Positions 9,460 through 49,318 of a stretch of 64,000 bases of DNA are shown piece after piece. Source of the DNA: a phage; sequence record PZ338878.1. One strand, written 5' to 3'. Both the position numbers and the translations under genes were made by a program. How positions within the stretch are numbered: position 1 is the stretch's first letter; every line of letters starts with the position of its first letter. The notes beneath the pieces are model-generated. The model searched no databases. It was given only the letters and a program-made list of their open reading frames with translations, and was not told the origin of the DNA.

Positions 9460-9659
9460 TATACACCAGCCTTAAGATCAATTAAAGCCAAAGTTGTTTC
9501 AGAATGTGTTTGCTCGTCTACAGGTGCAGTCATATGATAATACAAAAAGTCTTCGGCATCATACCAATCTGATTCTTGACCTTGTTTCCAACCATCAATG
9601 AAAGCATCCTCCATAATGGTTTGTAATTCTTCACGAGTTAAGTGAATATCTTTATTCAT
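9459..9659 (-). CDS. hypothetical protein (66 aa)
   Basis: ORF track; no motif. Confidence 0.35.
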   Translation of the reverse strand: MNKDIHLTREELQTIMEDAFIDGWKQGQESDWYDAEDFLYYHMTAPVDEQTHSETTLALIDLKAGV

Positions 9660-9865
9660 TACACATTCTCCTCTTTTACCAATTCCATCGTTGAACTATC
9701 AAAACCATCTTTAGAAGAATAGGTATAGACAGAACGTAGTTCTCGCAGGACAGTAAATACATTAGGATCATCTAACCAAGCATCCTGGAGGAGAACATAA
9801 CGATCTTCATTGTCATACTGGACAGCAATCATAGAACCAGACAGTTTGTAAATTTTAATATTCAT
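9659..9865 (-). CDS. hypothetical protein (68 aa)
   Basis: Track ORF 9659..9892 trimmed in frame to ATG at 9865, preceded by AAGGAG. Confidence 0.4.
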   Translation of the reverse strand: MNIKIYKLSGSMIAVQYDNEDRYVLLQDAWLDDPNVFTVLRELRSVYTYSSKDGFDSSTMELVKEENV

Positions 9866-34297: not shown

Positions 34298-35695
34298 ATG
34301 ACAGCACCAAAATCATGGGAACAATATAAAGAAGAATTAACACCCCTTGCTAAAAATCACAATATTCAAATCCTGGGTTATGTTGGGGAATGGAAAGGGA
34401 GCAAGACTAAACTTAAACTATCTTGCCCTGATCATGGAGAGTGGGAAAGTACCGTAATCACTAACTTTAAAACTAGAGGCGGTAAATGTTGCCCCGATTG
34501 CAATGGTCATAGAAAAGTAACAGAAGAAAAGGAATGTATTTCCCTTGTTGATGTTGCTAAAGAAAGAGGGTTTACTTTTATAGGTCTTGCCGAGGAGTGG
34601 CGAGGTGTACGAACAAAAATTCGCATAATTTGCCCTAAACATGGAGAGTGGAACACCACAAATATTATTAGTTTTAGGAATGGACATGGTTGTCCGACAT
34701 GTGCAAGTAATAAGCCGTTAACATGGGAAACAGAATTACCGATCTTGGAAGAGATAGCACAGAAGAAGGGGTATCAAGTGTTAGGGTACGTTGGAGAATG
34801 GAAAAGAAATAAAACAAAACTTGATTTGTTGTGTCATTGTGGTTATAAATGGGATACTACAAGTATTAACAGTTTTAAACGTGGTAGTGGTTGTCCTTTA
34901 TGTGGGTATAAGAATACAGGTAAGTCACAAACAATATCCGACGATCAACATATTGCAGATTTCTTTTCTACTGGTGTCTTCCCTGAAGGCACTATCTTCA
35001 CTAACACAGGAGCACGGGGGAAAGGATGTGGGCATATTATCTGGATGGTTGAATGTCCTGTTTGCTCTCATGATGAATATGTTCAAGCAGGTGTTTGCAA
35101 TGGTAAATTTTACTCTAAAGGATATAACCTTAAACGAGGACACATGCCGTGTCGTTGTGGAAACTATCATTATACAGAAGACCAGATCACCTACAAAGTG
35201 AGAAAGGAAGTAGAGAGTAAAGGGTATATTTGGGTAGGATGGATCAGTAAACCTAGTGCAAAAGGCAAGTTTAAATATTGGTGCAATAAACACGGGGAAC
35301 AAATTGGAAATGCTGATAGTTTGATACATAGGGGAGCTGGGTGTCCACAGTGTGCTGGTCATAGTCAACAGCAATTATATATTAATATTGTTAAAGATAA
35401 TGATATTATAGTTGCTCTTAAGTTTGGTATAGCTAAAGATAGCGATAGACGATTAAACCGTCAAAATAACCATAATATGTTTTTTATGGAGCGTATTTGT
35501 TTATATGATTTTAGCACAGTGAAACAATGTAAGGCTGCTGAAAGAGCTATAAAGAAAAAATTAAAAACTGGTATTTTAACGGAAAGAGAGTTGAAAGACG
35601 GTTATACAGAAACAGTAAGTGTTTCTGATTTGGAAAATCTTCAAAAAATTATTACACAATATGGTGGCAAGTTAGTATACAGTAAGGAGGTGTAA
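34298..35695 (+). CDS. multi-zinc-ribbon protein with C-terminal GIY-YIG/T5orf172-like region (putative nuclease-like)
   Basis: 465 aa; at least four tandem modules of the form GEW...CP.HGEW..T.I..F..G.GCP.C; C-terminal LYINIVKDNDIIVALKFGIAKDSDRRLNRQNNH. Confidence 0.4.
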   Translation: MTAPKSWEQYKEELTPLAKNHNIQILGYVGEWKGSKTKLKLSCPDHGEWESTVITNFKTRGGKCCPDCNGHRKVTEEKECISLVDVAKERGFTFIGLAEEWRGVRTKIRIICPKHGEWNTTNIISFRNGHGCPTCASNKPLTWETELPILEEIAQKKGYQVLGYVGEWKRNKTKLDLLCHCGYKWDTTSINSFKRGSGCPLCGYKNTGKSQTISDDQHIADFFSTGVFPEGTIFTNTGARGKGCGHIIWMVECPVCSHDEYVQAGVCNGKFYSKGYNLKRGHMPCRCGNYHYTEDQITYKVRKEVESKGYIWVGWISKPSAKGKFKYWCNKHGEQIGNADSLIHRGAGCPQCAGHSQQQLYINIVKDNDIIVALKFGIAKDSDRRLNRQNNHNMFFMERICLYDFSTVKQCKAAERAIKKKLKTGILTERELKDGYTETVSVSDLENLQKIITQYGGKLVYSKEV

Positions 35696-36247
35696 ATGCG
35701 GATTACTGATAAGTATGTGTTCTTCTTCTCGGCAAAAGATGAATTTAGCAACTGGTATCTATCATCTTTTATTGAACCTTTAGCTCCCAAGTATAATAAT
35801 TCTATTACAAGTTCTGTTGAATTTACTTGTGTGGAACAATATATGATGTGGAGAAAAGCATGTTTGTTTTATGATTACAACATTGCATCTTCTATTTTAA
35901 CCGGAGATCTAAGATATACAGGAGAAAAAGAACAGGCATATTATAAGCGACTAGGTAGATTAGTTAAAGATTACGATGAAGCTACTTGGACTTCTTTACG
36001 GGAGAAGATTGTCAAGCGTGGTTTGTATCTTAAATACACACAAAATGAAGATCTCAAAAATAAACTTATCGCTTACGCAGATAAGGAGTTCGTAGAGGCA
36101 AGCCCTTATGATTCTATTTATGGTATCAAAATGGGGATGTGGGATCGTGATGTTGAAAACAAGGATCGTTGGAAAGGACAAAATCTTTTAGGAAAATGGC
36201 ATACAGACCTTGCTGTTTATCTAAAAACACAATCTGATATTTCCTGA
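35696..36247 (+). CDS. NADAR (YbiA-like) domain protein
   Basis: 183 aa; FFFSAKDEFSNWYLSSF, EQYMMWRKA, VEASPYDSIYGIKMG, WKGQNLLGKW follow the NADAR/YbiA motif order. Confidence 0.7.
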   Translation: MRITDKYVFFFSAKDEFSNWYLSSFIEPLAPKYNNSITSSVEFTCVEQYMMWRKACLFYDYNIASSILTGDLRYTGEKEQAYYKRLGRLVKDYDEATWTSLREKIVKRGLYLKYTQNEDLKNKLIAYADKEFVEASPYDSIYGIKMGMWDRDVENKDRWKGQNLLGKWHTDLAVYLKTQSDIS

Positions 36248-36465
36248 TATTTTGAAAATTTTTATTTTTATAAAAAGGGGTGTGGGTTTCATGTACGGAA
36301 ATCCACCCTCTGAATAATATATCCAGAGTAAATATTATTCTGTACTCTGTTAATAAAGTATTTAATTTGTTTGTTGGACTATGGTATCTGATCTTTAAAA
36401 GACATACTATCTCTTAACTACTACTTATAACAGAACAGTAAAATCATTTTTATAAAAAGGACAAA

Positions 36466-36665
36466 ATTATTTAAAGTTTTTACAGATTTTTGGCTACAAA
36501 TTTTGAAAATGAAAAGTTCAAGTTTGGTCAAAATTATTTAAAGTTTTTGTATGTATTTCTATCCAGATTTTGAAAATGAAAACTTCAATTTTTTAAAAAT
36601 TCCCCAGTTTATTTAAAGTTTTTTTGCCTTTTTCCGTAGAAAAATCAAAAATGAAAAGTTCAATT
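36466..36665 (+). repeat. three tandem direct repeats of about 67-73 bp
   Basis: Each unit has ATTATTTAAAGTTTTT ... TTTGAAAATGAAAAGTTCAA; units start near 36466, 36533 and 36605. Confidence 0.7.
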
Positions 36666-36686
36666 TCGTGTTTTTATAGGTGTGTT

Positions 36687-36799
36687 AATGAGAATCATTT
36701 TCGTTTGTAAATGAGAATCATTATCATTTAACTATGTAAGTGATAATCATTCTCAGTAAGAGAATGAGAATCATTAGCAAATGAGAATTTTTCTCATTT
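36687..36799 (+). promoter_or_regulatory. cluster of five Fur-box-like palindromes (AATGAGAATCATT core)
   Basis: Copies at 36687-36699, 36710-36722, about 36741-36755 (GTGATAATCATTCTC), 36763-36775, and AATGAGAAtttTTCTCATT at 36779-36799. Confidence 0.5.
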
Positions 36800-37039
36800 A
36801 CAGAATAACGCGCAGGGGCGGTGTTTGTCTCGCGCTCCCGTGTCCCCTCGCCATACAATAAGAATAGCATAACCAACAACAAAAGCAAGCGATTATTTTT
36901 ATCTTTACATTTCTTTACAAATTTATTTTAGACGAGCTACCGGCGATCAACCTTCCAACCAGGGCCGCCTGGTATGTTAGCCCCGCCTTTACGCCGTGGG
37001 GGTGGCGTTTCCTCTTCTGTATGTAAAACAGTATAAGCC

Positions 37040-37085
37040 CGATCCCTGGGCTTGTCAATATTATTTTTTGTTTTCTTGCCAGGAT
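37040..37085 (+). terminator. possible bidirectional terminator-like hairpin
   Basis: aagccc-gatccct-gggctt followed by a T-rich run; lies just past the stop of the minus-strand ORF 37061..37327. Confidence 0.3.
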
Positions 37086-37327
37086 AGGACACCTAACCAA
37101 AAATACATGTCGCCCCGCGCCCCTGGCGGGATCTTGCTTTCCCCGCCGCCACTGCAAGCCCATAAATAACCGTCAGCGAACGGATCAAAGTGATCTATCT
37201 CTTCCACCTTATGATCGCCCAGGTTGAGAACGGTTTCAACCTTTAAGCCCGTTGCGCTTGCTACCTGGTGCACCGTGCCGCCTTGCCAGCCCAATGATTG
37301 CATGAGATGTAAAGGAGTATTTGTCAT
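37061..37327 (-). CDS. hypothetical protein (88 aa) in GC-rich island
   Basis: ORF track; SD GAAAGGG; GC-rich codons (CTG, GGC, CAG) unlike the rest of the window. Confidence 0.35.
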   Translation of the reverse strand: MTNTPLHLMQSLGWQGGTVHQVASATGLKVETVLNLGDHKVEEIDHFDPFADGYLWACSGGGESKIPPGARGDMYFWLGVLSWQENKK

Positions 37328-37438
37328 GGTATCGCCCTTTCTTTGATGTGCGCCCTGGTTGGCGCGGTAGAAAGATAATAGCCGTTTCTTTTATAGATAG
37401 CAAGCAAAAAAGAAATGAAAAAAAGATTAAAAAAACGG

Positions 37439-37499
37439 TTGACGTTCCTCACCTGGTAGCGTAGTATTCATCTTGTCGAGGGGCGGCAATAGTGCCGCT
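37439..37499 (+). promoter_or_regulatory. sigma70-like promoter + 5-prime UTR stem-loop (variant)
   Basis: TTGACG, 17 nt, TAGTAT, then hairpin gcggca-at-ag-tgccgc at about 37482-37499, then SD and ATG at 37523. Confidence 0.5.
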
Positions 37500-37522
37500 C
37501 ATAACAGAAGAGAGAAATAATC

Positions 37523-47472: not shown

Positions 47473-47676
47473 CCTAAATAAAGATGATAGCTTTTACCTA
47501 TCAAAAACGTTCACCGAAAAAAGTGAATAGATCGCGGTATCGAGCTAATCAAGGAGCAGATGAACAACCATACCATGAAGATCATAAGGCGTTTACAACG
47601 TGTTTTAGACCGCTTATTTTTAATTTCTCCATGTAACTATCTGGCAAAAACAGCCTTTTTCTTGTCTTTCCTCTTA

Positions 47677-47751
47677 AATGATAATCATTCTTATTTATAG
47701 CTGATTATTTATGCAATAAACTGCATAATGCAATAATGATAATCATTCTTA
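47677..47751 (+). promoter_or_regulatory. two copies of the palindrome AATGATAATCATT (Fur-box-like core) with identical flanks
   Basis: AATGATAATCATTCTTA at 47677-47693 and 47735-47751. Confidence 0.5.
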
Positions 47752-48110
47752 ACTTATGACCATCTAACCTATAAAATAATAAGCTATCTAACTAAATTAA
47801 AACTAATTATCTCACCTTTATTTATAATTTACTGTTATTATCTCATTGATAACCTTATATTAAACAACAATAACTAATATAAATCATTACTAAGCTAAAT
47901 ATAATCTATCTAACCTTTAAAACTATAACTATAATCTATCGAATTGTTGCACAAAGTAACTATTAAATTGTTAGTAACATTACTAAATAATTAATATCCT
48001 ATCTATTTATGATCTAATCTTTACCTTACTATCTATTACCTAAATAATCATTTCATACCGTAATAATTTCATATAATAATTATAACAAGAAATATAATTA
48101 GCAAGCGTAT

Positions 48111-48290
48111 CATTAGCAGCCTATGCCGGACACATAGGCGGCTAATAATAACGCAACTACACACCTCACATAATAACTATCACCGATAGTTATTATCTGT
48201 GCTTATGTAGCTTGCAACAATTGCAAGCGCAACAATATACATGGTATATTGTATTCCCTTACATTGTTGCGGTGCGTTATTATTAGCTAA
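48111..48290 (+). repeat. nested inverted repeats / palindromes in AT-rich non-coding region
   Basis: Perfect 15-bp arms GCTAATAATAACGCA (48141-48155) and TGCGTTATTATTAGC (48273-48287); palindromes ttagcagcctatg...cataggcggctaa, ataactatc-acc-gatagttat, cttgcaa-caa-ttgcaag. Confidence 0.6.
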
Positions 48291-48662
48291 TGTTTGGAAC
48301 ATTGGCTATAATATAAGCTACCCAATAATAAGTTATGCAATAATAAACATAGTGAATAATTACCCTGATGATCATAATGCGCCACCTTCCAGGGGCGCTA
48401 TGTGAACACAAAGAAATCTTTCTTGTCAAGAAAAATATTACCATTATTGCGCAAAATTATTTATATATGAATAGACGGTTTTTCATACTATTGCCCCCCC
48501 CAAATTATGCCCCTTTTGTTGGGTACAACTATCCCTATTTGTTGCAATGTATACCTTATTTGTTGAGCATAGTTATAGCCTATTTGTTGAGCCTACTTTC
48601 TTAAAAGCGCAATAAATTAGAATTATCTTGATTTTTAGGGCGTTTTATAGTATAGAAAATAT

Positions 48663-48681
48663 GCAAATGATAATCATTATC
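48663..48681 (+). promoter_or_regulatory. Fur-box-like site (17 of 19 matches to GATAATGATAATCATTATC as recalled)
   Basis: gcAAATGATAATCATTATC read directly; further degenerate copies at about 48848-48878. Confidence 0.5.
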
Positions 48682-48933
48682 AGCTATCTTCCACGGGTAG
48701 CACTATTTCACGCAGGATCATTTCATTTGGCAAGGTGTATATAGATGTTTAGAAATGCCAAGCCATTGATTTGCTTAGAATTTATCTGTTTTGTTGGGAA
48801 TAGTGCCTTTATTGTCCAGAAAATAATCAAAAGTCTTATAAGTCATTGAATGATAATGCAAATGATAATAATTCTCATTGATATTTGAGGGGGACGGTCG
48901 GCAGAAATCGGGGGGCGCTGAAAATCGCGTTAA

Positions 48934-49000
48934 NNNNNNNNNNNNNNNNNNNNNNNNNNNNNNNNNNNNNNNNNNNNNNNNNNNNNNNNNNNNNNNNNNN
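48934..49000. other. 67-nt run of N (assembly gap or masked sequence)
   Basis: Literal n characters; flanks are GC-rich (gggggacggtcggcag / agggggtgtgtcg) unlike the surrounding AT-rich DNA. Confidence 0.95.
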
Positions 49001-49318
49001 AGGGGGTGTGTCGAAATAAATCGGGTATACCGGAAAATTTTTGTGGCATAGATATTTATTTGTCTATATTATGTACAAAGGGGTGTGTTAAAAATAATAG
49101 GTATATATAGAATAATTGATAGGGAAATCCTATACTAAATCCTTCATTAATGATGTTTCTATGTGGCTGTCCTTGTAACAGATGAAAAGACGCTGTATGA
49201 TGTGTGAAAGACAGAATCAAAGATGCAAATAATACTTGCATTGAATAGAAATGTCTGTACACTGTGTTCCATATAATATGCAATACCGCGCATAACAAAC
49301 TACTAATGAGAGGTGTAA

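Follow-up and report, generated by a model that had tools for sequence, protein, structure and literature searches.

A cluster of predicted Fur boxes in a conserved non-coding control region of a phi92-like coliphage

INTRODUCTION

The operators of the iron-sensing repressor Fur in Escherichia coli (fepA-fes, fepB-entC, fepD-entS, fecI, cirA, fiu and ryhB, and the multi-box operator of iucA) are built on a 19-bp palindrome with a 7-1-7 core, TGATAATnATTATCA, and overlapping paired sites that are offset by 6 bp. Here we describe a cluster of five palindromes of the same build in a 64,000-nucleotide stretch of phage DNA (record PZ338878.1; the whole stretch is referred to below as the window). 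We assign this DNA to a Justusliebigvirus coliphage (phi92-like, Stephanstirmvirinae); positions 36200-37400 are 96-98% identical to many Justusliebigvirus coliphages, whose genomes are ∼147 kb long. Scoring matrices derived from the host operators and from the phage sites are interchangeable in both directions. Unlike the host operators, which contain one box or two overlapping ones, the phage array has five separate strong boxes, lies on the genome of a virulent phage, lacks a convincing −35/−10 overlap and prefers GAGAAT.

Fur boxes belong to the standard repertoire of bacterial promoters, and single Fur-regulated cargo genes of phages are known too. Shiga-toxin prophages reportedly carry a Fur box at the stx1 promoter, an observation said to go back to Calderwood and Mekalanos in 1987. 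There a function carried by the phage becomes iron-responsive through a Fur site of the host type, as might be the case for the array; unlike the array, which lies in non-coding control regions of a virulent phage, the stx1 site is a lone box overlapping one cargo-gene promoter, and its phage is temperate. Sites of other host regulators have been borrowed too, for example Pho boxes by cyanophages and LexA boxes by temperate phages. These likewise let the phage read the physiological state of its host through a host transcription factor, but they serve a different regulator and are associated with promoters, whereas the Fur arrays lie in non-coding DNA and in the terminal repeat.

Another counterpart is Repeat Region 3 of phage T5 (repeats DRC1-4 and palindromes E-J), the candidate injection stop signal, which shares with our locus the repeated AAATGAGAATCATT units, a long non-coding region and the border with the first-expressed genes; it lies ∼8% from the genome end, as our array would if the right end of the phage has been placed correctly by homology. 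T5 differs in having paired DnaA boxes (IRD'/IRC') and nine DRD repeats beside the array, neither of which was found here, and in that its array lies inside a 10-kb terminal repeat, compared to a putative repeat of ∼330 bp in the phi92-like phage. The accounts of the T5 region that we consulted cover its repeats, palindromes and DnaA boxes and make no mention of Fur (Davison 2020, 10.1101/866236; a 2026 preprint, 10.64898/2026.04.02.716235; and PMC10644984). Our literature search, which was incomplete, found no earlier identification of the T5 palindromes as putative Fur boxes and no description of multi-box arrays of this predicted kind in control regions or terminal repeats of virulent phages, so that an earlier report is possible.

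RESULTS

Four of five palindromes outscore the left-out Fur sites of the host

We built a palindromic 19-bp Fur matrix from the best site in each of 11 Fur promoters of E. coli K-12 MG1655 (fepA-fes, fepD-entS, fepB-entC, fhuA, fecI, cirA, fiu, tonB, exbB, ryhB and fur) and scored the phage sites against the phage's own base composition. The original prediction had placed five closely spaced Fur-box-like palindromes between tandem repeats and a GC-rich island. Both its description and its placement were correct: five palindromes of the form TGA(G/T)AAT-n-ATT(A/C)TCA lie within 36684-36801 (∼120 bp), with tandem repeats at 36446-36666 to the left and a rise in GC content to the right. The separate boxes are spaced 17-29 bp apart.

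36684-36702, Fur box S1, GTTAATGAGAATCATTTTC; core TGAGAATCATTTTCG at 36689-36703; 16.8 bits, with a partner shifted by +6 at 36690 (9.3 bits)
36707-36731, Fur box S2, GTAAATGAGAATCATTATC, with its 6-bp-shifted partner GAGAATCATTATCATTTAA; core TGAGAATCATTATCA at 36712-36726; 16.8 and 11.1 bits
36736-36754, Fur box S3, GTAAGTGATAATCATTCTC; core TGATAATCATTCTCA at 36741-36755; 14.8 bits, shifted partner 8.4 bits
36760-36778, Fur box S4, GAGAATGAGAATCATTAGC; core TGAGAATCATTAGCA at 36765-36779; 18.7 bits, the strongest of the cluster
36777-36801, Fur box S5, adjacent to the island; core TGAGAATTTTTCTCA at 36782-36796; weak, 10.3 and 9.1 bits

By comparison, host Fur sites that were left out of the matrix scored 8.4-14.6 bits, and 52 kb of E. 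coli DNA outside the Fur promoters contained a single match of ≥12 bits. The resemblance to Fur boxes is stronger than first claimed; with the matrix trained on K-12 alone, the phage sites outrank the host's own. The array is also denser than all 11 host promoters: within 120 bp it holds six sites of ≥10 bits and four of ≥14 bits, and the host promoters have at most two of the latter. A matrix scan against shuffled AT-rich DNA had been named beforehand as the refuting test, and the sites passed it clearly. When the local AT-rich gap was shuffled with its dinucleotides preserved (n = 5000), a score of 14.8 bits was reached in 0.16% of the shuffles (P = 0.0016), and the shuffles contained on average 0.07 matches of ≥10 bits as opposed to the six observed. 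Over the whole window there were seven sites of ≥14.8 bits (0.11 expected), and TGAKAATNATTMTCA with up to two mismatches matched 13 times (2.5 expected; none of 100 shuffles reached 13). The cores of S2 and S3 have no mismatch to TGAKAATNATTMTCA, and S2 agrees with GATAATGATAATCATTATC at 16 of 19 positions.

For each of the five sites there is a weaker partner (7.4-11.1 bits) at an offset of exactly 6 bp. Overlapping sites with a 6-bp offset are a signature of host Fur clusters (Chen et al. 2007, PMC2189734). We also ran the comparison in reverse, with a matrix of 22 phage sites. In 54.8 kb of E. coli DNA, of which the Fur promoters account for 4.5%, 18 of its 25 top matches fell in these promoters, and a 19th lay just outside the segment taken for fur, beside the fur promoter; the test is circular in part, since the host matrix had served to choose the phage sites. 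Within the ryhB operator itself we find AATGAGAATGATTAT. The phage sites favour GAGAAT over the host consensus GATAAT, and GAGAAT is present too in the genuine host operators of ryhB and fecI. A blastn search of the cluster against 5,426 E. coli genomes returned nothing significant, and the array is therefore not a captured host promoter. From these comparisons we consider it probable that the array binds host Fur.

The perfect palindrome that the original prediction singled out, AATGAGAA-TTT-TTCTCATT, is indeed present within S5 (36780-36798), but as a Fur box it is the weakest of the five, because its centre is TTT instead of ATCAT. The homologues of S5 in related phages are strong proximal boxes, TTGAATGATAATCATTCTCATTTGC in Vequintavirinae and GTAAATGATAATCATTCTC in Phapecoctavirus. 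The sequence of S4 is identical in phages alia and EmilieFrey. No convincing promoter-like site overlaps the boxes in this phage, the best candidate on the plus strand matching at 7 of 12 positions.

The array is part of a conserved module with a non-coding island and a leftward promoter

The array belongs to a conserved non-coding control region where the late genes meet the terminal block of small early genes. From left to right this region consists of AT-rich, lineage-specific tandem repeats, the Fur array, a conserved non-coding island and a leftward σ70 promoter, P_L.

36446-36666, three AT-rich tandem repeats of 67-75 bp each, directly left of the array; GC 0.21-0.25
36802-37025, minus strand (probably transcribed leftward), conserved non-coding island; most conserved in its core, ∼36905-37020
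37030-37058, minus strand, P_L, TTGACA-17-TATACT; 11 of 12 consensus matches, predicted start ∼37023

In annotated relatives the gap that carries the array is ∼0.8-1.3 kb long and has no credible gene. The GC content climbs from 0.21-0.27 to 0.48-0.56 in the island. Each tandem unit contains ATTATTTAAAGTTTTT and TTTTGAAAATGAAAAGTTCAA; at the same place phages phiTE and KB57 have GGGTCTCGATCG / GGGTTCTCGATCG repeats instead (L021 1080-1260 and L022 1095-1260, respectively), and we class the repeats left of the array as lineage-specific and iteron-like. Within the window we saw no GC-skew change that would mark an origin and no replication initiator gene adjoining the array. DnaA boxes (TTWTNCACA) occur 14 times in the window (11.2 expected), and none of them lies in 36248-37520 or 47640-49300.

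The conservation of the island reaches far beyond that of its coding flanks. Positions 36902-37027 are ∼85% identical down to Vequintavirinae, and so even in phages of Klebsiella, Cronobacter and Pectobacterium, and an alignment of 24 sequences has invariant runs of 15-20 nt, such as GTTAGCCCCGCCTTT. Its indels are of 1 nt and non-triplet, which excludes a coding function, and no conserved open reading frame (ORF) was found in it. Searches of Rfam on both strands (E up to 1) gave no family and only spurious matches of miRNA hairpins over the palindromes. According to ARAGORN, neither the window nor any of 22 related loci contains a tRNA or tmRNA. In Klebsiella phage K45PH128C2, tRNA-Met and tRNA-Ile are annotated over the homologous boxes and the start of the island (L231 462-615); with ARAGORN, homologous loci give no tRNA, and these calls are probably an annotation artefact caused by the palindromes.

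Each of the 24 relatives has a homologue of P_L that agrees with the consensus at 9-12 of 12 positions (TTGACA, TTGACG or TTGCAA; 17-18 bp; TATACT, CATAAT, TATATT or TATAGT). At least eight different spacer sequences occur, and the distance of the promoter to the island core is constant across the 24 sequences. The island is thus most likely transcribed leftward from ∼37023 toward the array, which would span about +225 to +340 of the transcript, and then into the AT-rich repeats; we consider the island a candidate for a new non-coding RNA or a leader. Vequintavirinae have a second leftward promoter within the island, which is absent from this lineage. The spacer of P_L is itself a GC-rich hairpin, AAGCCCAGGGATCGGGCTT (37035-37053). 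This hairpin resembles a terminator of the leftward ORF at 37061-37327 and also a plus-strand terminator; its sequence is different in each lineage, and its GC-rich palindromic character is kept.

The boxes turn over but are retained among relatives

Fur boxes occur at the same position in every rV5/phAPEC8/phi92 subgroup that we examined, i.e. in Justusliebigvirus, in Phapecoctavirus (ESCO13, Schickermooser and nepoznato) and in four lineages of Vequintavirinae. The Vequintavirinae with boxes infect Escherichia, Serratia, Salmonella, Pectobacterium and Klebsiella, all of them Enterobacterales. Among homologous IMG/VR contigs, 15 of 16 have the boxes in place. Relatives have anywhere from one box to five or more. 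The upstream ones do not align from one subfamily to another; the proximal box borders the conserved island in every case, at a fixed distance. That the sites turn over yet are retained points to selection for the motif. In L094, which resembles Raoultella phage Ro1 and is the sole relative without boxes, other sequence also takes the place of the island's left half; P_L and the island core stay. The core of L094 is followed by AAGGAGG-N7-ATG, a ribosome-binding site with an ATG.

Further Fur boxes lie in the putative equivalent of the terminal repeat

The array is not the only place in the window with high-scoring sites. A second large non-coding region, 47640-49300, contains the following features:

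47674-47692, Fur box just beyond the last early gene; 11.3 bits; contains TGATAATCATTCTTA
47732-47750, Fur box just beyond the last early gene; 16.0 bits; contains TGATAATCATTCTTA
48599-48932, stretch equivalent to a terminal repeat; aligns to positions 10-329 of the direct terminal repeat (DTR) of phage Schickermooser with 62% identity
48663-48681, Fur box in this stretch; 20.2 bits
48852-48876, overlapping Fur boxes in this stretch, starting at 48852 and 48858; 11.8 and 16.4 bits

The physical ends of Schickermooser have been determined (Korf et al. 2019, PMC6563267). Its 329-bp DTR carries Fur boxes (at DTR positions 72 and 251-275), and in the alignment both are in register with those of the window; the Schickermooser homologue of the box at 47.7 kb scores 14.9 bits. 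The physical ends of our phage probably lie within 47640-49300 as well. From the homology to Schickermooser, the early block would form the right-terminal 12 kb of the genome, bracketed by Fur boxes, with the array ∼12.2 kb (∼8% of the genome) from the right end.

Two other observations concern this region. A run of 66 Ns (48935-49000) begins 2 nt past the putative terminal repeat; phage Antha, the closest relative, reads GCACCTCTCGCAAGCGAGCAGTATTTTGCGGCAAGTTATTGATATTATTGACTTTACGCTTATGAAA across this stretch, which is nothing remarkable. Just left of the putative repeat, 48520-48592 contains three copies of (C)TATTTGTTG(A/C), ∼23-25 bp apart, that could be binding repeats for a protein, e.g. 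a terminase or an initiator.

Similar arrays occur in T5-like phages and in many other viral contigs

A blastn search links the cluster directly to T5-like phages. In T5 (AY587007, L014), the repeats DRC1-4 and the palindromes E-J (9468-9666) score 13.5-17.3 bits and form 6-bp-shifted pairs, and the repeats of the T5-like phages VAH1 and EC104 likewise score as Fur boxes (besides the T5 locus, the observation refers to L003 2100-2640 and L004 2510-2680). The T5 array lies 7.9% from the left end (9.5 of 121.7 kb), in the non-coding region considered to contain the injection stop signal. T5 has a further strong double Fur site 228-252 bp from its left end, inside dmp. VAH1 has an extra palindrome, AAATGAGAATGATTCTCATTT, upstream of its DnaA boxes.

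We then scanned IMG/VR for two AATGA(G/T)AATCATT units 4-30 bp apart, with the reversed motif as a control. At least 120 stretches contained such pairs, compared to two for the control. Among the matches listed, 119 loci (L110-L228) fell into at least 42 DNA families with a GC content of 0.18-0.63, and their arrays were intergenic, many of them at divergent junctions; terminase genes directly follow the array in at least three families (L183, L128 and L191). No protein cluster was common to more than eight of the 42 families and none was shared with the window. The lack of a broadly shared neighbouring protein makes a host factor more likely than a binder encoded by the phages. Arrays were found ≤500 nt from the locus ends about twice as often as expected among the matches listed (36 versus 17.5; control, 13 versus 11.7), an enrichment that is possibly inflated by assemblies breaking at repeats. 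Bacterial genomes from Pelagibacter to Paenibacillus also carried the same pairs among the matches listed, which is consistent with the wide conservation of the Fur box.

DISCUSSION

What might the array do? Our preferred, though tentative, reading is that it is an iron-dependent barrier or operator for leftward non-coding transcription; we chose this reading because the array, the island and the promoter form one conserved module. Iron-loaded Fur would coat ∼120 bp of phage DNA, with two dimers per box on opposite faces of the helix. A transcript starting at P_L would first meet the array and, beyond it, the AT-rich repeats; Fe-Fur on the array would stop or shorten the transcript, and under iron starvation, with Fur in its apo form, it would read through. 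Events at the border of the late and early genes would then follow the iron status of the host. The link to leftward transcription comes from P_L, which is kept in 24 of 24 relatives despite divergent spacers, from the lack of a protein-coding target on the left, and from L094, where the boxes are missing together with the left half of the island.

Several observations weigh against this proposal. The array starts ∼225 nt downstream of the predicted start, which is unusual for a Fur operator, and we know of no well-documented roadblock repression by Fur. Folding of the island was not significant compared to shuffled sequences on either strand (z = −0.2 and +0.7), and its consensus fold (−14 kcal/mol on the plus strand and −18 on the minus strand) has few compensatory pairs. 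The boxes at 47.7 kb and in the terminal repeat are not beside P_L, and the island is missing from the arrays of T5 and many unrelated contigs, which suggests a role in Fur recruitment more general than the control of one transcript. A Fur sink and an architectural element are serious rivals, and the T5 parallels, the terminal-repeat boxes and the breadth of the arrays are no less compatible with them.

Direct control of the early small-gene promoter by the array fits the geometry poorly, because this promoter is ∼640 bp away, beyond the island and a leftward ORF:

37061-37327, minus strand, small leftward ORF of 88 aa that adjoins the island; no Pfam match
37439-37467, early-gene promoter TTGACG-17-TAGTAT, ∼640 bp from the Fur boxes
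37523, start of the rightward array of small early genes

If the array is an architectural element, which we regard as rather unlikely, Fur would form a nucleoprotein complex for genome entry, end protection, replication or packaging: a pause like the T5 injection stop, a protected end, or a host-factor site of an origin with iterons and AT-rich DNA. This would agree with the Fur-box scores of the repeats in the T5 injection-stop region and in VAH1 and EC104. In both phage groups the first-expressed genes have the array at their inner border, ∼8% from a physical end (a putative one in our phage), and strong boxes lie ∼70-275 bp from the ends; the lineage-specific iterons and DNA of 21-25% GC that adjoin our array, the twofold excess of arrays near locus ends and their position upstream of terminase genes in at least three families (among the IMG/VR matches listed) point the same way. 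However, the gaps have no DnaA boxes, the DRD repeats of T5 were not found, the terminal repeat is ∼330 bp and not 10 kb long, no origin-marking change in GC skew was seen, and the excess at locus ends may stem from assembly breaks at repeats. Moreover, the ends of this phage are placed by homology only, two-step injection is not known for this phage group, and rV5 has been described as circularly permuted (PMC3606486). A wider form of this explanation, that Fur arrays are a genome-delivery device shared by unrelated virulent phages (T5-like Demerecviridae and the rV5/phi92/phAPEC8 group), seems quite improbable to us; its specific content, in which Fur near the termini and at the ∼8% site would bound the first DNA segment, Fur would be the missing injection-stop factor of T5 and phi92-like phages would enter in stages, is just as doubtful. 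It is also unlikely that the arrays serve only to bind Fur and so derepress the iron-starvation regulon of the host (iron uptake, RyhB and NrdEF). At least ten strong boxes per genome, multiplied by hundreds of replicated copies, would soak up the Fur pool; the position of the boxes relative to genes would be irrelevant, and they would lie in non-coding DNA for that reason. Multicopy Fur boxes do titrate Fur in E. coli, which is the principle of the FURTA assay, and the boxes are unusually dense and strong, have no overlapping promoter, lie at three separate non-coding places and recur in many unrelated viral contigs in varied contexts. Such a sink does not predict the fixed position of the proximal box by the island or the joint loss of the boxes and the left half of the island in L094. 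Titration would be substantial only late in infection, when derepression of the host may bring little benefit; a cell contains thousands of copies of Fur.

We find it very improbable that the boxes are operators for a phage-encoded protein whose specificity resembles that of Fur. The preference for GAGAAT over the host GATAAT would fit such a binder, as would the many small early ORFs that are uncharacterised and have no Pfam match, including the 88-aa ORF next to the island. But GAGAAT is also found in the ryhB and fecI operators, the window encodes no Fur homologue (best tblastn E = 1.7), T5-like and rV5-like phages would need a common binder, and the same pair of 13-mers occurs in at least 42 unrelated DNA families without any protein cluster that more than eight of them share or that is shared with the window. 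We give still less credence to the boxes being the operator of a rightward Fur-repressed promoter, TTGAAT-N18-CAGAAT, that would transcribe the island into a small RNA comparable to RyhB. Several Vequintavirinae have the proximal box flanked exactly by TTGAAT and CAGAAT, the GAAT is invariant, and after the island the plus strand has a hairpin with a nearby T-run. This promoter matches at only 7-9 of 12 positions and inconsistently between lineages, loses the −11 A in the CTGAAT and CGGAAT forms and, in this phage, loses its −35 element (GCAAAT); the T-run is 8-12 nt off the hairpin. We had favoured this candidate at first and dropped it as weak and inconsistent in comparison with the oppositely oriented P_L, which is kept in 24 of 24 relatives. 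Nor does the locus resemble an RyhB-like, Fur-regulated small RNA in other respects, as the conserved promoter reads the other strand and lies a long way from the boxes, and neither an Rfam family nor a significant fold was found.

Whichever function applies, the arrays suggest that virulent phages may recruit Fur for a purpose not yet described. If Fur binds, the iron status of the host would be sensed or manipulated by a large group of Enterobacterales phages that are used in therapy, and this would bear on phage therapy since iron is limiting in infected tissue. The injection-stop repeats of T5, unexplained since the 1980s, would gain a concrete candidate ligand, and the similar arrays in at least 42 unrelated families of viral DNA would indicate a general phage strategy, not a curiosity.

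Genes next to the array

No Pfam domain was matched by the small ORFs neighbouring the array, and no protein-coding target was found to its left. The operon left of the gap runs rightward and ends in the following gene:

35696-36247, plus strand, gene for a NADAR/YbiA-like protein of 183 aa, the last gene of the operon

The gene before it (34298-35695) encodes a protein of 465 aa with repeated CapR-homology domains and a T5orf172 domain.

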